NCBI GenBank assembly: GCA_000004695.1
Contig: CM000155.2
Span: forward strand, 352,001-416,000
DNA from: Dictyostelium discoideum
Lineage: Eukaryota
DNA length: 64,000 bases
Direction of reading: 5' to 3'
Shown: positions 622-39,673 of the stretch, one piece after another
How positions within the stretch are numbered: the stretch's first letter is position 1
How the letters are laid out: every line of letters starts with the position of its first letter
Notes under the pieces: model-generated
What the model saw: only the letters and a program-made list of their open reading frames with translations
Databases searched by the model: none
What the model was told of the DNA's origin: nothing
Made by a program: the position numbers and the translations under genes

Positions 622-3592
622 TTTGAATTATATTTGTTATTTACTATTTTTAATTTTTTAATATTAAAGTCTCCAAATATTCAGCTATTGTTTATTTTTT
701 ATATCATTGTTAATGTCATTAATAACTATAACTAGTTATTAATATAAATAAAAATCAATCATTTTGTAGATATATTATCTATTTATGTATTTTATAAGAT
801 ATTGATAATTTCCAACACTAATTTTTAATTTTTTGTTTGGTTCATTATTATTTTTTTAAAAATTGTTCAATGTTTTAACCACTTTTCAATGTAATTAAAG
901 ATATTTGCAATTGTTTATTAAAAAAAAAAAAAAAAATTGTTTGTTATTTTATTAAAAAAAAAAGAGCTACTGTTCATTTTTTAATAAATTAATTTTAAAT
1001 CAATATCTATAACAATTGATATTAATAAATAATAATCATTTAATAGATACATTATCTATATTTTTTGTAATTTTTTTAAAAAGAAATCAATAGTTTCCAA
1101 CACTAATTTTTTCTTATGATTTTATTTTAATTTCAGATTTTACATGCACAAAACAATCATTGGAATATACATATGATATTGATAGTACATATTATACAAA
1201 ATGGATTTTTTCAGATTTGGAATATGAATTGGTTTTTGAATGTAAAAATAATAGCAAAGAAAGAACATGTACTGCTGGTATGTCCATTGATATTGCTAAA
1301 AATTTACATGGTCAAATAAAGATGTGCGGAACTGATAATAATAGTGTATTAGATTGCCATTCGAATTACGAAGAATATTATCCAAAGCCAATTATTGAAG
1401 GTGACTTTAAACCATCTACCAAAGGTGGTCCTACTATTATGAAAGGTTATTATTTGGCAGTTGGTGCATACTACTATAACATTATCCCTTATACTAGATT
1501 GGGTATTATAGGTGATGTTCATAGTAACTCTATAGATGTCACAAATTTAATACTAGACTATAAAGGTGGTTGTGGCCCAAGAACTATTCAATGGCCAAAT
1601 GATTTTAAATATAGTTTCAATCATTCAAATCCAATCATTGAAAATATTTTTATTGAAGGTTCATCTTTTATATCAAAAGGTTCTAATTTTTGTAATTCTT
1701 CTGATTCAATTCAAATTTATTTAGATGGTGTTCAAATTGATAAATCAAAAATAAAATCAATTGATCATGAGCAGTTTGAAATAATTTACACTCAACTATA
1801 TTCAAAATCAATCAATGTTAAAATAGTATCTGGTGGACTTGAATCGAATATTTACAAATTGGATTTTAAACCTATACCTTTAAAAATTAATAGTGTTCCA
1901 AGATTAAAAGGTGGTTCAATTACAATAATTGGTGAAAGACTATCTTCACAAGTAAATAATTCAACAATCATTGTTAAAATTGGTCAATATGATTGTAAAA
2001 ATGTAATCTCATCAAAAAATGAAATTCTCTGTAATTTAGAATCGGTTCCAAATGTTGAAAAAGTTAAATTGGTAGATTTACAAGTTAATATCTCAATAAA
2101 TGGTATTTTTAATGAAAATAATTTATTATTCTCATTCGATATACCAATAATATCAGATTTTATACTTCCACAAGGTGAAGTTAAATTAGTTGGTGATTGT
2201 TTTGGTTCTTCACAATTGACTCAAGTTAAAATTGACGATGTATTACAATCCAATATAACAATTAATATTAATGAAAAAGAAACAACACTTTCATTTAAGC
2301 CAATTAAACCAATTAAAAAATCAAAGTTATATATAATTGTCAATGGTACAAAATCAAATACTATTGAAATTGATTCATCATTTTTTGTAAAAAGTGTTCC
2401 ATCTTCACCTTCAGTAAATGGTCAAATTGTAAACTTTACTCTTTTCAATATAAATCCAAATAATGTTAATGCAACACCAATTATGATTTTTCAAGATAAT
2501 AGTTCAATAAAAGCAATTGATTATAAAAATTCAAATGAATACTCAACTCACACATACTCTTTTGATATTCCAAAAAGTTGTGGGAGAAATGAAATTACAA
2601 TTTTAATTGGAGACCAACTAACCCGTACTGAAATTTATTATGAATTACCAATAATATCAAGTTGTTCAATTGTTTCAAATCAAATGATTAAATGTCTTGG
2701 TAATTTTTTAAATTATTTAGATTTATTTAAAAATGGTAAAATTAAAATACAATTTTCAAATATGGTAATAATTGATAATATTCCAAACAATCCAATTATT
2801 TTTATGAGTGATTCATTTTCATTCCCAATGAAGCCAGAGTATAGTTCAAGTGATATATATCTTATTGTTTGTGATGAAACTTCTCTAGATTTTAAAGTTG
2901 ATATAACTCCATCGCTTAAATTTGTGAGCCAATCTCTTGTTTTCAACTCCACTGGTGGTGAATTATTAATTAATGGTGAAAACTTAAATGAAAATACAAT
3001 TTACAATACATCTGTATATTGCTTTTCAAATAAACAAGTTTATAATTGTTCATTTATAAACAATACATCTATATCATGTGATATTGAATTGTTAGGTCCA
3101 TTCGATCAACTTTGTAAAATCAAATTTAATAGTAAAGATGAGAATAATAACATTTCAATATCATATTATCCTCCATTAGTTTTAAATTCAACAACGATTT
3201 CAAAATCATCAACTGGTGGAATTATTACTATTTTTGGTAATGAATTTTATAATCAAATTGATTCAATTACAGTTGGTAAAAGTAAATGTTTAAACTCTAC
3301 ATTTATAAATTCAACATCGATTTCATGTTTTGTAGAACCTTCAAATTTTAATATTAACCAAACTGAACAACAAAAAAAACAATATGTTAACATTATAATT
3401 AATGGTAAAAGTGGTGGTAATAATTTAATAATTTATTCTGGTAATTCAAATAGAATTGATGAAAATAACAAATCAAATAAAAATACAATTGACGAAAAAC
3501 AAACCAATAATGAAATCAAAAATGAATCTATTAAAAGAAATATAAATTTTATATTATTTATAATTATATTCTCAACAATTTTAATCATATAA
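396..3592 (+). CDS. IPT/TIG-domain cell-surface glycoprotein, Tgr(tiger)-family-like, copy 1. Model is join(396..474,1137..3592), about 844 aa. It has a signal peptide, several IPT/TIG repeats, many N-x-S/T sites and a hydrophobic extreme C-terminus, so it looks GPI-anchored or secreted.
   Basis: Exon 1 encodes [26 protein letters not shown], a signal peptide. The donor is AAGA|GTAAAT at 474/475 and the acceptor is tttcag| at 1136, with phase 1 preserved. IPT motifs follow the P..G..GGxITI.GxxF...V.xG...C pattern ([15 protein letters not shown]...[35 protein letters not shown]). The protein ends [17 protein letters not shown]. Confidence 0.85.
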
Positions 3593-4649: not shown

Positions 4650-7105
4650 ATTTTACATGCACAAAACAATCATTGGAATATACATATGATATCGATAGTA
4701 CATATTATACAAAATGGATTTTTTCAGATTTGGAATATGAATTGGTTTTTGAATGTAAAAATAATAGCAAAGAAAGAACATGTACTGCTGGTATGTCCAT
4801 TGATATTGCTAAAATTTTACATGGTCAAATAAAGAAGTGCGGAACTGATAATAATAGTGTATTAGATTGCCATTTGAAATACGAAGAATATTATCCAAAG
4901 CCAATTATTGAAGGTGACTTTAAACCATCTACCAAAGGTGGTCCTACTATTATGAAAGGTTATTATTTGGCAGTTGGTGCATACTACTATAACATTATCC
5001 CTTATACTAGATTGGGTATTATAGGTGATGTTCATTGTAACTCTATAGATGTCACAAATTTAATACTAGACTATAAAGGTGGTTGTGGCCCAAGAACTAT
5101 TCAATGGCCAAATGATTTTAAATATAGTTTCAATCATTCAAATCCAATCATTGAAAATATTTTTATTGAAGGTTCATCTTTTATATCAAAAGGTTCTAAT
5201 TTTTGTAATTCTTCTGATTCAATTCAAATTTATTTAGATGGTGTTCAAATTGATAAATCAAAAATAAAATCAATTGATCATGAGCAGTTTGAAATAATTT
5301 ACACTCAACTATATTCAAAATCAATCAATGTTAAAATAGTATCTGGTGGACTTGAATCGAATATTTACAAATTGGATTTTAAACCTATACCTTTAAAAAT
5401 TAATAGTGTTCCAAGATTAAAAGGTGGTTCAATTACAATAATTGGTGAAAGACTATCTTCACAAGTAAATAATTCAACAATCATTGTTAAAATTGGTCAA
5501 TATCATTGTAAAAAGGTAATCTCATCAAAAAATGAAATTCTATGTAATTTAGAATCGGTTCCAAATGTTGAAAAAGTTAAATTGGTAGATTTACAAGTTA
5601 ATATCTCAATAAATGGTATTTTTAATGAAAATAATTTATTATTCTCATTCGATATACCAATAATATCAGATTTTATACTTCCACAAGGTGAAGTTAAATT
5701 AGTTGGTGATTGTTTTGGTTCTTCACAATTAACTCAAGTTAAAATTGACGATGTGTTACAATCTAATATAACAATTAATATTAATGAAAAAGAAACAACA
5801 CTTTCATTTAAGCCAATTAAACCAATTAAAAAATCAAAGTTATATATAATTGTCAATGGTACAAAATCAAATACTATTGAAATTGATTCATCATTTTTTG
5901 TAAAAAGTGTTCCATCTTCACCTTCAGTAAATGGTCAAATTGTAAACTTTACTCTTTTCAATATAAATCCAAATAATGTTAATGAAACACCAATTATGAT
6001 TTTTCAAGATAATAGTTCAATAAATGCAATTGATTATAAAAATTCAAATGAAAACTCGACTCACACATACTCTTTTGATATTCCAAAAAGTTGTGGGAGA
6101 AATGAAATTACAATTTTAATTGGAGACCAACTAACCCGTACTGAAATTTATTATGAATTACCAATAATATCAAGTTGTTCAATTGTTTCAAATCAAATGA
6201 TTAAATGTCTTGGTAATTTTTTAAATTATCTAGATTTATTTAAAAATGGTAAAATTAAAATACAATTTTCAAATATGGTAATAATTGATAATATTCCAAA
6301 CAATCCAAATATTTTTATGAGTGATTCATTTTCATTCCCAATGAAGCCAGAGTATAGTTCAAGTGATATATATCTTATTGTTTGTGATGAAACTTCTCCA
6401 GATTTTAAAGTTGATATAACTCCATCGCTTAAATTTGTGAGCCAATCTCTTGTTTTCAACTCCACTGGTGGTGAATTATTAATTAATGGTGAAAATTTTA
6501 ATGAAAATACAATTTACAATACATCTGTATATTGCTTTTCAAATAAACAAGTTTATAATTGTTCATTTATAAACAATACATCTATCTCATGTGATATTGA
6601 ATTGGTAGGTCCATTCGATCAACTTTGTAAAATCAAATTTAATGGTAAAGATGAGAATTATAACATTTCAATATCATATTATCCTCCATTAGTTTTAAAT
6701 TCAACAACGATTTCGAATTCATCGATTGGTGGAATTATTATAATTTTTGGTAATGAATTTTATAATCAAATTGATTCAATTACAGTTGGTAAAAGTAAAT
6801 GTTTAAACTCTACATTTATAAATTCAACATCGATTTCATGTTTTGTAGAACCTTCAAATTTTATTATTAATCAAACTGAACAACAACAACAACAATATGT
6901 TAACATTACAATTAATAACAAAAGTGGTGGTAATAATTTAATAATTTATTCTGGTAATTCAAATAGAATTGATGAAAATAATAAATCAAATAAAAATACA
7001 ATTGATGATAAACAAACCAACAATGAAATCAAAAATGAATCCATAAAAAGAAATATAAATTTAATTTTATTTATAATTATATTCTCAACGATTTTAATCA
7101 TTTAA
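4650..7105 (+). CDS. Tgr-like IPT/TIG glycoprotein copy 2, main exon. Acceptor is tttcag| at 4649. It is 97-98% identical to copy 1 and has the same hydrophobic C-terminus. Because the upstream signal-peptide exon is broken, this is a possible pseudogene or a product lacking a signal peptide.
   Basis: The ORF 4673..7105 begins at an in-frame TTG. The reading frame stays open back to the acceptor at 4650. Alignment to copy 1 is nearly gap-free. Confidence 0.7.
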
Positions 7106-7943: not shown

Positions 7944-8105
7944 ATGAAATATATTATATTATTTTTTATTTTATATTTAGTTTCTGATACATTAGGATCT
8001 TTAAATGAACCAGTTGTCAAGAGTAAATATTTTAAATATAAAAATAATTTTATTTTTTTTTTTTTATTGTTTTTACTGTTTGGGTTATTTTTATATCTCA
8101 AATTT

Positions 8106-8151
<46 letters not shown>

Positions 8152-11100
8152 TTTGATTATTGTTGTTATTTACTATTTTTAATTTTTTAATATTAAAGTC
8201 TCCAAATATTCAGCTATTGTTTATTTTTTTATATCATTGTTAATGTCATTAATAACTATAACTAGTTATTAATATAAATAAATATCAATCATTTTGTAGA
8301 TATATTATCTATTTATGTATTTTATAAAAGATATTGATAATTTCCAACACCAATTTTTAATTTTTTTATTTGGTTCATTAATATTTTTTTAAAAAATTTT
8401 CAATGTTTTAACCACTTGTCAATGTAATTAAAGATATTTGCAATTGTTTATTAAAAAAAAAAAAAAAAAAAAAATTGTTTGTTATTTTTTTAAAAAAAAA
8501 AAAAAAGAGCTACTGTTCATTTTTTAATAAATTAATTTTAAATTAATATCTATAACTATTAATATTAATAAATATTAATCATTTATTAGATACATTATCT
8601 CTATTTTTTGTATTTTTTTAAAAAGAAATCAATGGTTTCCAACACTAATTTTTTCTTATGATTTTATTTTAATTTTAGATTTTACATGCACAAAACAATC
8701 ATTGGAATATACATATGATATTGATAGTACATATTATTCAAAATGGATTTTTTCAAATTTGAAATATGAATTGGTTTTTGAATGTAAAAATAATAGCAAA
8801 GAAAGAACATGTACTGCTGGTATGTCCATTGATATTGCTAAAAATTTACATGGTCAAATAAAGATGTGCAGAACTGATAATAATGGTGTATTAGATTGCC
8901 ATTCGAATTACGAAGAATATTTTCCAAAGCCAATTATTGAAGGTGACTTTAAACCATCTACCAAAGGTGGTCCTACTATTATGAAAGGTTATTATTTGGC
9001 AGTTGGAGTAATTCCTTACTTTACTATTATCCCTGATACTATATTGGGAACAATAGGTGATATTTTTAGTAACTCTATAGATGTCACAAATTTAATACTA
9101 GACTATAAAGGTGGTTGTGGCCCAAGAACTATTCAATGGCCAAATGATTTTAAATATAGTTTCAATCATTCAAATCCAATCATTGAAAATATTTTGATAG
9201 AAGGTTCATCTTTTATATCAAAAGGTTCTAATTTTTGTAATTCTTCTGATTCAATTCAAATTTATTTAGATGGTGTTCAAATTGATAAATCAAAAATAAA
9301 ATCAATTGATCATGAACAATTTGAAATAATTTACACTCAACTATATTCAAAATCAATAAATGTTAAAATAGTATCTGGTGGACTTGAATCGAATATTTAC
9401 AAATTGGATCTTAAACCTATACCTTTAAAAATTAATAGTGTTCCAAGATTAAAAGGTGGTTCAATTACAATAATTGGTGAAAGACTATCTTCACAAGTAA
9501 ATAATTCAACAATCATTGTTAAAATTGGTCAATATGATTGTAAAAATGTAATCTCATCAAAAAATGAAATTCTCTGTAATTTAGAATCGGTTCCAAATGT
9601 TGAAAAGGTTAAATTGGTAGATTTACAAGTTAATATCTCAATAAATGGTATTTTTAATGAAAATAATTTATTATTCTCATTCGATATACCAATAATATCA
9701 GATTTTATACTTCCTCAAGGTGAAGTTAAATTAGTTGGTGATTGTTTTGGTTCTTCACAATTGACTCAAGTTAAAATTGACGATGTGTTACAATCCAATA
9801 TAACAATTAATATTAATGAAAAAGAAACAACACTTTCATTTAAGCCAATTAAACCAATTAAAAAATCAAAGTTATATGTAATTGTCAATGGTACAAAATC
9901 AAATACTATTGAAATTGATTCATCATTTTTTGTAAAAAGTGTTCCATCTTCACCTTCAGTAAATGGTCAAATTGTAAACTTTACACTTTTCAATATAAAT
10001 CCAAATAATGTTAATGCAACACCAATTATGATTTTTCAAGATAATAGTTCAATAAAAGCAATTGATTATAAAAATTCAAATGAATACTCAACTCACACAT
10101 ACTCTTTTGATATTCCAAAAAGTTGTGGGAGAAATGAAATTACAATTTTAATTGGAGACCAACTAACCCGTACTGAAATTTATTATGAATTACCAATAAT
10201 ATCAAGTTGTTCAATTGTTTCAAATCAAATGATTAAATGTCTTGGTAATTTTATAAATTATCTAGATTTATTTAAAAATGGTAAAATTAAAATACAATTT
10301 TCAAATATGGTAATAATTGATAATGTTCCAAACAATCCAATTATTTTTATGAGTGATTCATTTTCATTCCCAATGAAGCCAGAGTATAGTTCAAGTGATA
10401 TATATCTTATTGTTTGTAATGAAATTTCTCCAGATTTTAAAGTTGATATAACTCCATCGCTTAAATTTGTGAGCCAATCTCTTGTTTTCAACTCCACTGG
10501 TGGTGAATTATTAATTAATGGTGAAAATTTTAATGAAAATACAATTTACAATACATCTGTATATTGCTTTTCAAATAAACAAGTTTATAATTGTTCATTT
10601 ATAAACTATACATCTATCTCATGTGATATTGAATTGGTAGGTCCATTCGATCAACTTTGTAAAATCAAATTTAATGGAAAAGATGAGGAGTATAACATTT
10701 CAATATCATATTATCCTCCATTAGTTTTAAATTCAACAACGATTTCGAATTCATCAATTGGTGGAATTATTACAATTTTTGGTAATGAATTTTATAATCA
10801 AATTGATTCAATTACAGTTGGTAAAAGTAAATGTTTAAACTCTACATTTATTAACTCAACATCAGTTTCATGTTTTTTAGAACCTTCCAAAATTATTATT
10901 GATCAAAGCAAACAACAACAGCAACAACAACAACAACAACAACAATATGTTAACATCACGATTAATGGTAAAAGTGGTGGTAATAATTTAATTATTTATT
11001 TTGATAATTCAATTATTGAAGTTAAAAACCAATCAAGCCAAAGTGATAAAAACAACAACAACAACAACAACAACAATGGTAAAAATATAAATAATGGTGA

Positions 11101-11863
11101 TAGTAAAACTGATGGTAGAAGTTTTTATGAAAAAAATAAAAAATGGATAACAGTATTAATAATAATTGGAAGTTTGGCATTACTTTTATTTATCTTTTTT
11201 GGTATAATTTATTGTAATAGAAAAAACGGTACTGTTATCTATTGGAAATATATTATGTGTCGCGGAATCAAAGAAAAAAAATATAAATTTAAAAATAGAA
11301 AAGAGATAAAACAAATACAAGAATTAAGACATACATTGGATAATGCAGAGACAATTTTTGCTGACTTTGAATTAGATAATATAATAACTTATTCAGAGTA
11401 TCAACTTACACCCGAAAATCGTCTACGAAAAGAACAACAAGAATTAGCTCGAGAAAATTATATTGAAACTTACCCAGATTATTATTTACATATAAATAAA
11501 ACTAAAAATTTACCAAATAATGATTCATTACCTCCAAATCAAGTTGAAAATTTACCAAATAATAATTCATTACCTCCAAATAAAATTGAAAATTCATTAC
11601 CTCCGAATCAAACTGAAAATTTACCAAATAATAATTCATTACCTCCAAATCAAACTGAAACATTACAAGAAGATTCTTTACCTCCAAATCAAACTGAAAC
11701 ATTACCAGAAGTTTCATTACCTCCAAATCATATTGAAACATTACCAGAAGTTTCATTACCTCCAAATCAAATTGAAACATTACCAGAAGTTTCATTACCT
11801 CCAAATCATATTGAAAAACTAACAGACAATTCATCATCATCTCAAGACCCAAGCTCTTCATAA
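7944..11863 (+). CDS. Tgr-like IPT/TIG type-I transmembrane glycoprotein, copy 3, full length. Model is join(7944..8022,8679..11863), about 1087 aa. After the ectodomain it has polyQ and polyN linkers, a TM helix ([23 protein letters not shown]) and a roughly 230-aa cytoplasmic tail with eight SLPPNQTE-type repeats.
   Basis: Exon 1 is identical in structure to copy 1, with donor GTAAAT at 8023 and acceptor ttttag| at 8678. The ORF 8702..11863 continues through the TM segment. A basic stop-transfer run (CNRKNG) follows the TM. Confidence 0.85.
11500..11830 (+). repeat. Coding tandem repeat of 39-42 nt, about 8 units, encoding (N/T)LP(NNN/EV)SLPPN(Q/H)(T/I)E in the cytoplasmic tail of copy 3
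   Basis: aatttaccaaataataattcattacctccaaatcaaactgaa recurs with small substitutions. Both alternative frames also stay open (ORFs 11502..11861 minus and 11520..11822 plus), which is typical of a repeat. Confidence 0.9.
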
Positions 11864-12299
11864 TTTTTTAAAAAATAAATAAATAAATAAATAAATAAAG
11901 AAATAAAGAAATAAATAAATAAATAAATTTCTTTTAAAAATAATATTAAAAAATGGAAAATTGTATTGAAAAAAAAGAAAACTATCAATTTAAAAGATAT
12001 TCCTGTTTTAAATTTTTATTTTTTTTTTTTTTTTTTTATTCTTATAAAATTTATATTTCTATTGATTAAAATCTTCCCTTACCACCTTGTTCCATACCAT
12101 TCATGTTATACATTCATACCACCTTTGATTCATAGCATGATATCATTCATACAATTTTGATTGAAACCACCCATACCTTGATTGATCATAATTCCTCCAT
12201 TGAAACGTTAATTCATCATTTGTTGTGGTCTCATTGTTGGAATGGTTGAACCTGCTGAAGTAATTGGATGTGCTGGTAGTTGTATGAATGTGTGTATGT

Positions 12300-12637: not shown

Positions 12638-14239
12638 ATGTCATATAATGGTATTGGAATAAAGACAGCAAGAGGTACAGGTACAAATGGTTATGTACAA
12701 AGAAATTTATCATATGTTAATACAAATTATAATAAAACTGAATATAGTATAAAAAAAGAAAGAGAATCAATTCTTGAACAACAAAAAAAACAACAATCAC
12801 AACCAATTAAAAAAGCAAATTTAGAATTAATTGAACATAATAGAAAAAGAAGAATTGAAGTTGAAATTGCACAATGGGCAGAAGAAAATGATTTATATGA
12901 AAAATATAAAGATCAAGAAGAATTGGATGCATTATTAGCAAAGAAAAGAGAAGAATTATTAGAGAAACAACAACAACAACAACAAAATAATAATAATAAT
13001 AATACCACTGAAGAAGAAGAAGAGGATGGGCAATATTCAAAACTAACAGATTCACATTCAAAACAATATCAAAAAGAAAAAGAGATAAAAAGATTCACAG
13101 ATGCATTAAACATTAAAGATTATATACCTGGTGCTTCTTTAGATAAGCAAGTTCAACAAGAACGTAAAGAAAAAAGACATCAAGAATATTTAGAAAGACA
13201 AAAAGAAAGAGAAAGAAAACAAAAAGAACATGAAAAACTTGAAAGAGATAGACAAAGAGAATACGATAGAAGAAGTAGAGATTCAGATAGAGATATTGAT
13301 AGATATAAAAGTACTAAAGATAGAGATAGAGATAGCGATAGAGATAGACATAGAGACAGAGACAGTGATAGATATAGAAGTAGTAGAGATAGTAGAGATA
13401 GTAGAGGTAGTAGAGATAGTAGAGATAGTAGAGATAGTAGAGATATTAGAGGTAGTAGGGATAGTAGGGATAATAGAGATAGTAGAGATAGAAGATATAG
13501 ATCTCGTAGTCGTTCAAATTCTCCTTCTTATTCAAAATCAACATCCCCAAGTAAGAGAGATAGAGATAGAAAGTCATATAGAGATCGTTCAGATTCAGAG
13601 TCATCATCAAGTAGTAGAGAAAGAGATCGTTCACATTCAATATCACCAAAAAGAGAAAAGAATACAACAACAACAACAACAAAAACAGCAATAAAGGAGA
13701 GATCAGTTTCTCCACCAAATATTGCTAGAAACAGATCACCACCACATAGAGATAGAGGTAATAAAAAAGAAGAAGAGGGGGATAAATCAATGTCACCACC
13801 AAGAAATAGAAGTGGTAGAAATAGATCGCTTTCACCATCACAATCACCAGCAATAAAAAGAAGTGTTAAAAAAGATGAAGAGGAGGATAAATCAATGTCA
13901 CCACCAAGAAATAGAAGTGGTAGAAATAGATCACTTTCACCATCGCAATCACCAACAATAAAAAGAAGTGTTAAAAAAGATGAAGAATCAATGTCACCAC
14001 CAAGAAATAGAGTTGGTAGAAATAGATCACTTTCACCAGCAATAAAAAGAAGTGTTAAAAAAGAAGAAAAGGAAGAAGAATCAATGTCACCACCAAGAAA
14101 AAGAAATAAAGATGATGAGGAGGAGCAGGAGGAGGAAGAGGATCTGAGATCAATATTTCCTTCAAGAAAAAGACAAAACACTCAAGACCATGAATCACCA
14201 CAAAGAAAAAGACTCGATTCTTCCTCTGATACTGATTAA
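12638..14239 (+). CDS. SRRM2/Cwc21-family splicing-associated protein. It has an N-terminal cwf21 motif and an RD/RS-rich domain.
   Basis: The N-terminus MSYNGIGIKTARGTGTNGYVQRNLSYV matches the conserved MYNGIGLxTPRGSGTNGYVQRNLS start of SRRM2/Cwc21. (RDS/RSR)n and SPPRNRSGRNRSLSP repeats follow. It is a single exon. Confidence 0.85.
   Translation: MSYNGIGIKTARGTGTNGYVQRNLSYVNTNYNKTEYSIKKERESILEQQKKQQSQPIKKANLELIEHNRKRRIEVEIAQWAEENDLYEKYKDQEELDALLAKKREELLEKQQQQQQNNNNNNTTEEEEEDGQYSKLTDSHSKQYQKEKEIKRFTDALNIKDYIPGASLDKQVQQERKEKRHQEYLERQKERERKQKEHEKLERDRQREYDRRSRDSDRDIDRYKSTKDRDRDSDRDRHRDRDSDRYRSSRDSRDSRGSRDSRDSRDSRDIRGSRDSRDNRDSRDRRYRSRSRSNSPSYSKSTSPSKRDRDRKSYRDRSDSESSSSSRERDRSHSISPKREKNTTTTTTKTAIKERSVSPPNIARNRSPPHRDRGNKKEEEGDKSMSPPRNRSGRNRSLSPSQSPAIKRSVKKDEEEDKSMSPPRNRSGRNRSLSPSQSPTIKRSVKKDEESMSPPRNRVGRNRSLSPAIKRSVKKEEKEEESMSPPRKRNKDDEEEQEEEEDLRSIFPSRKRQNTQDHESPQRKRLDSSSDTD
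13786..14100 (+). repeat. Three copies of an intragenic repeat of about 110 nt (SMSPPRNRSGRNRSLSPSQSPAIKRSVKKDEEE) within the SRRM2-like CDS
   Basis: Repeated nucleotide blocks beginning gataaatcaatgtcaccaccaagaaatagaagtggtagaaatagatc... Confidence 0.8.
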
Positions 14240-35672: not shown

Positions 35673-38600
35673 ATGGGAAAAAATAAAATGAATAAAAAAA
35701 ATAATAATTTTAAGTATTTATTTTTAATAATAATAAATTTATTTTTAAAAACTGCAAGTGCAGCAACAAAAAATGGTTTAGATGTGAACCAATATAACTG
35801 TATGGTGGATCTTTTTACATCAAATCAAATTTTGAACCAGGTTAATTTGGCAAACCTTAATTATAATTTTTGTGATTTTGTTAAAGGATTTCAATGTAAT
35901 ACTGCTACTTATTTTATTGAAAAAGTGTATGTTATTTTTTTTTTTTGATCAATTTACTACCCACAACAAAATTCTTAAATTTACTCAATTTTTTATTTTT
36001 TTAAAAAAAAAAAAAATCAAAAAAAAAGAACATTAAATTATCCTATAGGACAAGTTCCCATACCATTAATTACAACTAGTTTTGCATGTATACCAACAAT
36101 GACTCAATTAGTAATAAATAATTTCGATGTTGGATCTTTCATATCAACAAATAATGTTAAATTACAAAGATTGTAAATATTTTTTATCATAATACAACAA
36201 CAACAAAAATAATAATAATAATGAATTATAATTAATGTTTTTTTTTTTTTTTTTTTTTTTTAATATTATATAAATGAAATAGGGAATTAAATAATTGTAC
36301 AAAATTATATCCATTGCCAGTTTTAAGTTCAATTATTGAAGATGTTTACATTTTTAATAATGATAATTCGCACAATGAGAGTAGAGTGTCAATTGATTTT
36401 TCAAGTATTATAAATTTAAGATCATTTACCTTGGTTGATTATACAAGAAATGTGTCATATACAAGATTAATAGGTATACCAACAACTTTTAAATTATCTT
36501 CTTTAACAACACCTGTTGCAGAAATACCAATTTTAACAAATATGAACTTGACACTGTAAATATATTTATCATTAATATAAATTAAATTTAATTTTTATTC
36601 ATTTATCATTATTAAGCTAATAATTATAATAATTTTTAATATATTATATTATAGTTCAATTTTCTTTAATAATTATGTAAATAGAAATTCATTTATAAAT
36701 TTTAATACATTCAATTTAATAAGTTCTCTTACTTTATCATCTTATTCTCCAAATACATTAATACCATTTCCATTTGATTTACAAAATATACCAACTGGTG
36801 CTCCACTTACACTATTGTAAGTTTTTTATATTTATTTATCTATCTATTTATTTATTTATTTATTTTTTTAATTAAAGAATTTAATTTTAAAATAATTAAT
36901 TAATTAATTATAAAAAAAAGTATTTCTCATGTTTGTTTTGAACCAATAGTTTCAAATACTTCTGATGATTATTTTGCAGATTTTTCAAATCTTAAAAAAT
37001 TAATTTTATTTGGTGCTTTGTGTAACAGTAAACAACCATTACAAAAATCATATTTTCCAATTAAAAAACTTCAAGATGGGCCAACCCAATATTTTTATTT
37101 TGAAGGTTACAATTTTCATCCATTTTCATTTGACATATTTTCAACTGTTGCCGTATTATATTTAACACATAATAATTTAACAGGTGTAATTCCAATTAAA
37201 AAAGCAATTGAACAAGATGTGTATGTGTATTTTAATTTTTCATCATATGTAATATAATTTTTCATAATAAATTAACCAAAAACTATATATGATTTTTTTA
37301 AATATCAATAGAGATTTATCAAATAATCAATATATAGGTCGTTTAGATGATTCATATTGTACTTCATATGTCAATGTAAGTAATAATGTAGGAATAAATG
37401 ATATCCCAACTTGTTTTTCTTGTCATTGGAGTAGTTTTATGCAACCATATTTCCGGAATATAAGTTTTGTAAATTCAAATCAATGTAATAGTATTATTCC
37501 AAATTTAAAGGTTGAAACTGATGGACTTATTATATTGTATGGTAAAGATCTTGGTTTTTCAAACATTGATTTTGAAACTACACCATCATTAATTTGGAAA
37601 AGAATTCCATCCTCAAAAGGTACATCATTTTCTGCAAATTATTCATCAATTGCTAATTTTGGGTCATTGTCAACAATGGATATTCTATACTATTATCCAA
37701 ATAAGATTTATACAGTTTCATTATCTCCAATGTTTCCAGAAATTTATAAAGTGAAAGTAGTTTCACAAGATACATTCGACATTTATGGTAAATTCTTTAC
37801 ATATAATATTACAGATGTGTCAATTGAAATTGGTGATTTAATTCAACCATTAATTTGTTATGTATCATATACAAGTTTTGATTATATTAGTTGTTCATTG
37901 GAAAATATATTATCATTATTAATTGAATCACAACCACCAGTATTTGAAACAAATGTTATACCAATAGATGATAATTCAGGTATTACAATAAAATTATCAT
38001 CAATTAAAGTTTCTATTGGTTCATTAAGTTCAAAAGTTTATTTTACAAATACTGTTGGAGTGGAGAGTAATAATAGTTGTATTGCTTCTTGTCCAGTTGG
38101 ACAATATTGTAGTTTAAATTCTGCTACTTGTGTAGTACCTGACCCACTCCCAACCTCACCACCACCAGGTAATTGTAAAAATAATTGTTCAGGTAATGGT
38201 GTTTGTTTAGCTGCTTCAAGTCTATGTGTATGTAATGCAGGGTTCTCAGGTGAAGATTGTTCAGGTAAATTTTGTTCAAGTAGTTGTAGTGCAGATTTAT
38301 CACCTTCTCAAGGTTTATGTAACAATGTAAATGGTGAATGTGAATGTTTTAAATATTACACTGGTTCAAAATGTGAATTGCCAAATCACTTTGTTTCATC
38401 AAATGTACCATGTTCTATCAATGGTGGTACTGTATTATTATATGGTTGGTTTGGTACTAATAATACAAACGTTTTAGTTCATATTGGTGATGCAAAGTGT
38501 ATGAATGTTATTGTAAATTCATCTCAAATACAATGTACTATTGAAAAGGGTTCCATTGGTATAAAGTCAATTAATGTAACTCAAAATTCAATAGTTTGGT

Positions 38601-39662
38601 ATGCCAATAATGCTTATGAATATATAAATCCAGTTAAACAATGTTCAATTCCAAATTGTAATAATCATGGTACATGTAATCAAAATACAGGTAAATGTGA
38701 ATGTAGTAAACCATATAGTGGCTATGATTGTTTAGCTTTTGACCAAGCAAATTCAGGAGGTACTACCACATCACCATCAACACAACCACCTATTGCAATA
38801 CCAGAATCAAAACCAGTTATTAATACTACAACAGGTTCAGCAGAAATTACAAATGAACAAACCAATTATAAAATATTATTAAAATCAATTGTTGAATTAG
38901 ATTTTTCAAATAATGTAGTTTTTGAATATATATTGGATGGAAAATGGTCACTTTCAGCTTCAAAAAATGGTGATTCAGTTGTAACAAATTTCACACAAAC
39001 CATTAATAATACAACTAAAATAACTTCGAGTATTGAAGATTTATCATCAGATAAGAATTTTACATTTGCAGGTATTGATTTCACTGTTAAAAGTGGATCT
39101 GTTAAAGTATCTGTTGAAATTTTAAATTGGTCATTCTTAAATTCATTAAATACACTTCAATTAAGAATGGAATCATTAGTTTCAAATGATGGTGATGATA
39201 AAAATAATATAAATAAATGTAATTTAGAAAATGATGAAACTAATGTATCAAGTGATCAAAATCCACTTCAATTTAATAGTAATTTAAATAATGTTAAAAT
39301 TGAAAGGAATGCTAAAATTCTATACGGTAGATTCTTAAATAGAGCATTATCAGATGGTAGACCAACATTCATAACAAATCAAATCGTATCAAATTCATCA
39401 AATTCGTTAATAGTAGGCATTAACCTACCACATTGTAACAGCGAATGTGTAATTGATCCAGACTTTTCAGTATTAGTTTCATCAGATTTTAAATCTGCAG
39501 ATTCTTGTTCTCCTCATTCCGAAGACTCCAATAGAAAGTGGGTATTACCAGTTTCAATTGTTGTCAGTGTTGTAGGTGCTTCTCTTATTGTCATTATTAG
39601 TGTTATGATTTATCGTAAGAATAGAACAAAAATTAAAATTGGAATTTCAAAATTAAAAATAA

Positions 39663-39673
<11 letters not shown>
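35673..39673 (+). CDS. Type-I membrane protein with a signal peptide, leucine-rich repeats, tandem EGF-like cysteine repeats and a C-terminal TM. Six-exon model with exons at about 35673..35920, 36050..36172, 36283..36556, 36655..36816, 36921..37219 and 37311..39673.
   Basis: Exon 1 encodes the signal peptide (MGKNK...LFLIIINLFLKTASA). Introns are bounded by GT(A/G)(A/T)GT...(a/t)ag. LRR-like motifs include LTHNNLTGVIPIK and DLSNNQYIGRLD. EGF-like repeats include CKNNCSGNGVCLAASSLCVCNAGFSGEDC and CNNHGTCNQNTGKCECSKPYSGYDC. The TM is VSIVVSVVGASLIVIISVMIY followed by RKNRTK. The ORF-track start at 37289 lies inside intron 5. Individual exon edges may be off by ±10 nt. Confidence 0.6.

Follow-up and report, generated by a model that had tools for sequence, protein, structure and literature searches.

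A coding minisatellite with a conserved PPNQxE core in the predicted cytoplasmic tail of a Tgr-family protein of Dictyostelium discoideum

Recognition roles in the Tgr family of Dictyostelium discoideum are known for TgrB1 and TgrC1 only, the functions of TgrA, TgrH, TgrI and TgrO being stated as unknown, and the cytoplasmic domains of the family are said to mediate signalling (PMC12745789). In TgrB1, an activating cytoplasmic mutation (L846F) lies beside the phosphosite S845 (PMC11088635, PMC12142906), and the intracellular domain varies hardly at all in nature (PMC11088635); the tail of TgrC1 is short (PMC4404348). Little is understood of how the Tgr proteins signal downstream, and no function has been assigned to the large TgrAHIO clade. 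Here we describe a tandem repeat array at 11507-11815 on the + strand of a 64,000-nucleotide (nt) stretch of D. discoideum AX4 DNA (assembly GCA_000004695.1, contig CM000155.2, forward-strand positions 352,001 to 416,000), which is called the window below and whose own numbering is used unless another locus is named. The array is a genuine coding minisatellite, translated in frame in the last exon of the gene for XP_635226.2 (Q54EL4; hereafter P0001). This protein resembles TgrB1 and TgrC1 in having a signal peptide, an ectodomain of IPT/TIG and Ig-like E-set domains and a single transmembrane (TM) segment (Pfam searches here; PMC12745789). It differs from TgrC1 in its tail of 216 amino acids (aa), half of which is a tandem array, from TgrB1 in the divergence of the non-repeat part of that tail, and from both in that the gene probably belongs to the TgrO-like (TgrAHIO) clade. 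We propose, with moderate confidence and on sequence grounds, that a lineage-specific linear motif under selective constraint, with a putative partner, was recently amplified here into a multivalent array.

The array consists of eight tandem units, each encoding an SLPPN core (core starts at nt 11525, 11567, 11594, 11636, 11675, 11714, 11753 and 11792), and both unit parsing and Tandem Repeats Finder bear out the earlier note on this point; the unit length of 39-42 nt given there holds for seven units but fails for unit 3, which has only 27 nt (Table 1). Tandem Repeats Finder gave matches of 88-92% at periods of 39, 42 and 69 nt, the highest score being 320. The 15-nt core TCATTACCTCCAAAT, with one mismatch allowed, was found eight times in the window, always inside 11525-11806, against 0.02 occurrences expected from shuffled sequence. 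Two unit types can be recognized: type A, NLPNN[DN]SLPPNxxE, is present in three copies (units 1, 2 and 4, which differ pairwise by 2-3 nt) plus one truncated copy, and type B, TL[PQ]E[DV]SLPPNxxE, in four (units 5-8); an exact PPNQTE reading occurs in three units only. The odd 27-nt unit is accounted for by a 69-nt core-to-core duplication. The encoded peptide is acidic (net charge -13), rich in Pro, Asn, Leu and Glu, with no Arg and a single Lys, and its conserved core has the consensus L-P-x-x-S-x-P-P-N-Q-x-E. A 720-nt segment comprising the TM region and the tail is base-identical in the independent long-read assembly GCA_054883475.1, which contains the same four AX4 Tgr proteins (all four checked), and the eight units are therefore not an assembly artefact. 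We infer that this assembly represents the AX2-214 lab strain of PMC12745789, which is of AX4 type, and the identical array there says nothing about natural variation.

An open reading frame (ORF) of 1053 codons at 8702-11863 (+) holds the array in frame, and joining exon 1 to exon 2 (8679-11863) gives a translation that matches the annotated 1087-aa P0001 exactly. The protein was matched by Pfam models PF24612 (Ig_TgrO1; E 2.6e-31, 108 bits against a cutoff of 27.9) and PF01833 (TIG; E 1.7e-11), while no Pfam model matched the tail. Exon 1 encodes a signal peptide, and a single hydrophobic helix in exon 2 is followed by a basic stretch. In the AlphaFold model (19 family members) the beta ectodomain has a predicted local distance difference test score (pLDDT) of 70-90, the TM helix is followed by low-confidence helices up to residue 952, and residues 970-1087 form coil without secondary structure (pLDDT 22-33). 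By domain content and this predicted topology, which was read from hydrophobicity, the basic post-TM stretch and AlphaFold, P0001 is a type-I single-pass member of the Tgr family; its placement in the TgrO-like (TgrAHIO) clade is suggested by the Pfam family name and by 45-92% identity to other AX4 proteins described as "immunoglobulin E-set". The full-length Tgr-family protein and the cytoplasmic position of the repeat claimed in the earlier note are thus both upheld, and neither upstream paralog has such a tail. The array is placed in the cytosol because it follows, in a protein with a signal peptide, the only TM helix and a basic stop-transfer stretch, and it would form the intrinsically disordered distal half of the cytoplasmic tail according to the model. 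This topology bears on an alternative in which the repeat is structural or extracellular, as a leucine-rich-repeat (LRR)-like solenoid or an N-glycosylated stalk: the array does contain six N-x-S/T sequons (NQT, NNS, NDS), and an exhaustive search weakly matched LRR proteins with GNQLTTLPES repeats. However, the sequons are not conserved among units, the pattern LxxLxLxxNxL is absent, the period is 9-14 residues instead of the 20-30 of LRR proteins, and the low-pLDDT coil does not suit a solenoid. We reject this candidate because of the topology, the period and the AlphaFold coil, and regard its chance of being right as close to nil.

The designation of this protein as a "kin-recognition-type receptor" stands as far as family resemblance goes, but its further implications do not. 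The gene lies on the 3.6-Mb chromosome in a head-to-tail array of same-type paralogs outside the tgrBC locus, without the paired divergent tgrB-tgrC arrangement, and the ectodomain, whose ratio of nonsynonymous to synonymous divergence (dN/dS) is 0.34-0.45, does not show the extreme polymorphism expected of an allorecognition receptor.

The closest relatives of P0001 are the AX4 paralog XP_635270.1 (Q54EH0; P0003), P0012, P0009, P0039, P0020 and the L009 gene. They form a subfamily with it (76% identity overall) and share a 3' module of TM segment, helical tail, PPNQxE array and the ending ...SSSQDGPSSSS; they carry 4-6 diverged units, in contrast to the eight homogenised SLPPN units of two types in P0001. 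Unit counts for P0020, L009, P0039 and the genes of the cryptic sister species ACTFIY were read from DNA, several gene models being faulty. With a hidden Markov model (HMM) of the unit, each unit in six related genes reached 13-24 bits, and the best score among the other ORFs of the window, that is all but the one holding the tail, was 5.9 bits. A word-indexed search with the tail yielded one new protein, P0039. A phmmer search with the tail against 1.84 billion representatives, one per 50% cluster, to which the tails of non-representative Tgr proteins, possibly TgrB1 among them, are invisible, returned only the Tgr relatives P0020 and P0039 and unrelated repeat proteins. Supposed single ancestral copies in a sister subfamily (PLSENQ[MFI]GKLPDY), in D. 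firmibasis (LSPNQIQKLPDYD) and in D. citrinum (LSPLKIEPLSDNS) are at most a suggestive lead, the unit HMM finding nothing of at least 5 bits in them and pairwise BLASTP giving E = 0.06-0.13 only.

That the array is expandable, as was suggested earlier, is evident from these relatives. P0003 and its decayed copy, whose tails are about 97% identical, differ by one clean 39-nt deletion that removes exactly one unit. For the P0003 gene, collinearity between the allele of AX4 and that of the wild strain ACTFIW extends over 9.1 kb (about 90% identity); each allele has five cores, and an in-frame indel of 15 nt distinguishes the two in the last unit. Gain and loss in unit register are therefore demonstrated in this gene group, and the array changes by such events, through unequal recombination or replication slippage between near-identical cores. 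L007 is syntenic with the window, the downstream genes encoding 568 aa (+), 379 aa (-) and 1151 aa (-) there as compared with 533 (+), 381 (-) and 1137 (-) in the window, so the positional ortholog of the long-tail gene in the cryptic species has six units. P0003, P0012, P0009 and P0039 have old units that are distinct from one another and positionally orthologous (QPPNQIE, PPPNQNE, LLPQNQIE, SLPPPNQIE, PPPNQTE-KIT). The array of the AX4 gene derives from the first-unit type (A) and the late-unit type (B), with the middle types lost; it arose by recent amplification of these two types and is homogenised.

Several of these relatives show structural peculiarities. The decayed P0003 copy (L011 8001-10170, AX4-type genome) has an in-frame stop and a 1-nt deletion near its end. 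P0039 (L004 10001-10813, ACTFIW), an orphan ORF of 198 aa immediately following an MCM-family gene, has only the TM segment, tail and five-unit array of a long-type Tgr, with no ectodomain; it is a relic or else arose by partial duplication of the 3' module. The deposited model of P0012 (L007 10001-13726, ACTFIY) splices out the TM segment, which the ORF in the DNA keeps intact. The extreme C-terminus of the L007 gene is frameshifted relative to ...SSSQDGPSSSS, which may reflect a homopolymer sequencing error rather than biology.

The locus shows presence/absence polymorphism. In the wild strain ACTFIR it was recovered via the conserved neighbour DDB_G0291462, whose protein is 98.7% identical to that of AX4, so ACTFIR is D. 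discoideum. The ACTFIR locus is collinear with window 25319-12281 and then continues into an inverted 892-aa tgr gene, an arrangement also seen in ACTFIY; exactly the ACTFIY interval with the long-tail gene is skipped. Same-gene alleles were thus compared between AX4 and the AX4-type assembly, the one other D. discoideum genome in which the gene was found, both with eight units, and ACTFIR, where the gene is absent, in addition to the six-unit ortholog of the cryptic species. There is structural polymorphism at the syntenic site as a whole (L010 13390-21393 against window 11863-12281 and L007 5780-16967): three tandem tgr genes lie there in AX4, the inverted 892-aa tgr gene is the only one in ACTFIR, and ACTFIY combines the long-tail gene with an inverted tgr gene of 816 aa. 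Genes of the tgrAHIO clade duplicate nearly as often as transposons, with repeated gain and loss of partial genes (PMC12745789), and the polymorphism of this locus fits that description. Elsewhere, the ACTFIR array in L003 contains short-type genes only and its downstream region is not syntenic, P0016 runs off the contig end, and at the D. citrinum anchor locus (L012) extra genes are inserted and the Tgr position lies beyond the 10-kb flank.

Evidence for constraint comes from an alignment of 28 units from five genes; these arrays are tiled without gaps, and therefore no degenerate internal unit has been overlooked. Positions P10 and N12 of the unit are invariant (28/28) and vary only synonymously (CCT/CCC and AAT/AAC), E15 is kept in 27/28 and P11, Q13 and S7 in 24/28 each, and positions 2, 5, 6, 9 and 14 are freely variable. 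Because codon bias is extreme, synonymous differences within units are too few to support a formal dN/dS test, and aggregate proportions of nonsynonymous (pN) and synonymous (pS) differences were therefore computed over between-gene unit pairs. The core codons gave a pN of 0.052 and a pS of 0.157 (pN/pS about 0.33), and the flank codons 0.329 and 0.215 (about 1.5). The PPNQxE core thus appears to be the sole clearly conserved element of an otherwise drifting tail. Since the core is conserved while unit flanks and the remaining tail are unconstrained, the array is most likely a multivalent motif display. We propose that it would present a lineage-specific short linear motif in multiple copies, that the motif would bind a putative cytosolic partner, and that copy number would set avidity. 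The features of a tandem short-linear-motif array are present, with head-to-tail units lacking stable structure and a conserved core between variable flanks. A further step, in which LPxxSxPPNQxE would be a new docking motif of TgrAHIO receptors that recruits an adaptor, 4 to 8 copies would tune the signal and AX4/NC4 would carry a recently amplified high-valency allele, is doubtful in our estimation.

The same data argue against the array being a neutral coding minisatellite, that is, an expansion lacking a function of its own, tolerated in an unconstrained disordered tail of a fast-turnover gene family and driven by slippage or unequal crossing-over, in which the likeness of the cores reflects recent ancestry and gene conversion. 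Between genes, synonymous divergence is similar in core and flanks but nonsynonymous divergence is six-fold lower in the core, and P10 and N12 do not vary in protein sequence at all. The old diverged units of P0003, P0012, P0009 and P0039 keep the core, so gene conversion within one gene is no explanation for it. The 1087-codon ORF is also intact, despite a genome of 22% GC.

Other observations favour neutral expansion or weigh against our proposal. The units are phylogenetically non-independent and were delimited by a core-based pattern, the synonymous counts are small, and homogenisation within a gene can mimic conservation inside P0001, though not between genes. The non-repeat tail (window 11213-11506 compared with L006, L007 and L009; 88-92 codons) has a dN/dS of 0.87-3.5 between intact genes, on small synonymous counts, against the lower ratio of the ectodomain given above and the near invariance of the TgrB1 intracellular domain. 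The long-tail gene is missing at the ACTFIR syntenic site, and is therefore dispensable at least there. The unit motif fits no known ligand class among the patterns tested (see below), orphan (P0039) and decayed (P0020) copies of the tail exist, and units 6-8 are near-identical and hence very young. To these may be added the nearly transposon-like duplication of tgrAHIO genes, with many partial genes (PMC12745789), the reported weak expression of most tgr family members (bioRxiv 10.1101/2025.10.22.684067), and the notorious permissiveness of D. discoideum coding sequence to repeat expansion, its proteins being rich in polymorphic amino-acid repeats (PMC3460934). Like the present array, these repeats lie in AT-rich, repeat-prone coding DNA that tolerates in-frame expansion, and the P0001 gene itself has polyQ and polyN tracts; they differ in that they are mostly triplet or homopolymer runs, whereas the array is a 39-42-nt minisatellite with an internally differentiated, constrained core. 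Weighing both sides, we consider neutral expansion the main rival and a serious possibility, though less likely than our proposal.

The motif is not a canonical SH3, WW or EVH1 ligand. D. discoideum has SH3, WW and EVH1 proteins, and the proposal of the earlier note that the PP-containing units dock such domains is favoured by the PP dipeptide in each unit, on the proline-rich, disordered, cytoplasmic setting and on the PPP or S-P present in some paralog units. Every defining consensus is, however, absent. The 216-aa tail contains no match to the SH3 patterns PxxP, [RK]xxPxxP (class I) and PxxPx[RK] (class II), to the WW patterns PPxY, LPxY, PPLP and PPR, or to the EVH1 patterns [FWYL]PPPP (Ena/VASP class), also in the relaxed form [FWYL]Px[hydrophobic]P, and PPxxF (Homer class); for [ST]P there is one TP in the non-repeat tail and none in the array. 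The net charge of the array, the lack of Arg and a lone Lys that is misplaced for SH3 class I or II point the same way. The suggestion therefore fails on consensus patterns, and we hold it to be highly improbable; the likeness of the array to SH3, WW and EVH1 ligands is confined to its being proline-containing, disordered and cytoplasmic. Further searches of the 216-aa tail for PPG[WFYMLIH] (GYF), P[TS]AP (UEV), runs of at least five prolines (profilin) and the endocytic patterns NPF, DP[FW], NPxY and acidic dileucine (EH and AP2 motifs included) gave zero matches as well.

A phospho-regulated acidic module with clustered Ser/Thr sites (T-L-P-E, CK2-type S/T-x-x-E and the Ser-rich C-terminus) was also considered. 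Four CK2-type T-L-[PQ]-E matches are found in units 5-8, S7 is among the well-kept positions, and the S845 phosphosite of TgrB1 adjoins an activating mutation (PMC11088635). On the other hand, the Thr of these matches falls at unit position 2, one of the most variable (entropy 2.2), type A units are entirely without a CK2 pattern, and the invariant residues are Pro, Asn and Glu rather than Ser or Thr. On this balance a phospho-regulated module is improbable, if a little less so than docking of SH3, WW or EVH1 domains.

Variable-number arrays of linear motifs in disordered signalling regions are known from the EPIYA segments of CagA, the immunoreceptor tyrosine-based activation motifs of CD3-zeta and the heptads of the RNA polymerase II carboxy-terminal domain. 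Coding minisatellites whose product is an array of short linear motifs within a disordered region are a familiar category. The P0001 array shares with these examples the short units, the conserved core between variable flanks, the disorder, the change of copy number by recombination and a presumed multivalency. It differs in that partners and modifications are known in those systems, whereas the motif here is unrelated to theirs and known from its sequence alone. Under the motif-display reading, a conserved motif in a drifting tail offers a concrete handle for finding a cytosolic partner of Tgr proteins, and the copy numbers 4, 5, 6 and 8 that occur in nature would let valency be tested; if the docking-motif version is true, intracellular output would diversify alongside the birth-and-death evolution of the ectodomain. 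Should the motif be inert, the locus would remain a clean example of how a coding minisatellite is assembled, by a one-unit indel, a 69-nt duplication and homogenisation.

Table 1. Features of the long-tail tgr gene, its tandem paralogs and its relatives, with positions in the window.
Feature	Position	Strand	Support or remark
Short-type tandem Tgr paralog 1	1160-3592	+	Hydrophobic C-terminus, no cytoplasmic tail; tblastn: no tail-like sequence
Short-type tandem Tgr paralog 2	4673-7105	+	Homology to long gene stops near nt 11010
Exon 1: start codon, signal peptide, first base of following codon	7944-8022	+	Exact translation to P0001; AlphaFold helix 2-18
Intron, 656 nt, donor GTAAAT, acceptor TTTTAG, GC 0.13	8023-8678	+	
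Exon 2 ectodomain: TgrO1-like Ig and IPT/TIG beta domains	8679-11143	+	PF24612, PF01833; all-beta model, pLDDT 70-90; dN/dS 0.34-0.45 vs paralogs
TM helix, P0001 residues 849-871	11144-11212	+	Hydrophobicity; AlphaFold helix 846-873
Non-repeat membrane-proximal cytoplasmic tail, 98 aa, basic start (CNRKNG...)	11213-11506	+	Net charge +4; low-confidence helices 878-920, 938-952
Unit 1, type A, 42 nt	11507-11548	+	Unit HMM 15.7 bits
Unit 2, type A, 42 nt	11549-11590	+	Unit parsing, unit HMM
Unit 3, truncated, 27 nt, NSLPPNQTE	11591-11617	+	Product of 69-nt core-to-core duplication
Unit 4, type A, 42 nt	11618-11659	+	Unit parsing, unit HMM
Unit 5, type B, 39 nt	11660-11698	+	Unit parsing, unit HMM
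Unit 6, type B, 39 nt	11699-11737	+	Same sequence as unit 8
Unit 7, type B, 39 nt	11738-11776	+	1 nt different from units 6 and 8
Unit 8, type B, 39 nt	11777-11815	+	Same sequence as unit 6
Higher-order 69-nt duplication over units 1-4	11523-11591 vs 11592-11660	+	5 differences; Tandem Repeats Finder period 69, 92% matches
Ser-rich C-terminal end and stop codon	11816-11863	+	Ending ...SSSQD(G)PSSS(S) also in relatives
P0003 (XP_635270.1 / Q54EH0), AX4 paralog			5 units
P0020, decayed P0003 copy on another chromosome			4 units
L009, ACTFIW wild-strain ortholog of P0003			5 units
P0039, orphan TM-plus-tail fragment in ACTFIW			5 units
L007 gene, cryptic sister species ACTFIY			6 units
L008 gene, cryptic sister species ACTFIY			5 units

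The long-tail gene is the third of three tandem Tgr paralogs in the window and the only one with such a tail. The upstream short-type paralogs are about 90% identical to it until about nt 11010 (after ...GGNNLIIY) and then have another 3' end, whose hydrophobic terminus may be a glycosylphosphatidylinositol-anchor signal or a tail-less TM segment. Just outside the membrane, (AAC)n tracts at 10911-10945 and 11051-11076 encode polyQ (11 Q) and polyN (8 N); across paralogs the polyQ tract near the membrane ranges from 3 to 11 Q. GC content is about 20% in the window, 0.278 (coding-like) in the repeat and 0.128 in the intron. At 656 nt the single intron is long by Dictyostelium standards. Within it, the two copies of a diverged direct repeat (8251-8310 and 8541-8600) share 80% identity at a distance of 290 nt, and there is also a T-run of some 50 nt. 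A literature search with several plausible identifiers found no paper naming the XP_635226.2 gene, its repeat or its neighbour, and no tRNA gene is present in the window. Downstream, window 12638-14239 encodes a 533-aa RS/RD-rich protein with three repeats of about 38-46 aa (...SMSPPRNRSGRNRSLSPSQSP[AT]IKRSVKK...) and no Pfam match, the length of which varies by strain or species (509, 533, 568 aa). About 25 kb downstream, at 37289-39673, lies an unrelated TIG surface protein with a ComC supersandwich domain, EGF and IPT/TIG. The remaining genes of the window are ordinary and encode Vps8, two ABC transporters, SAE2/CtIP-like, ANKRD13-like, FNIP-repeat and SDR-SCP2 proteins.

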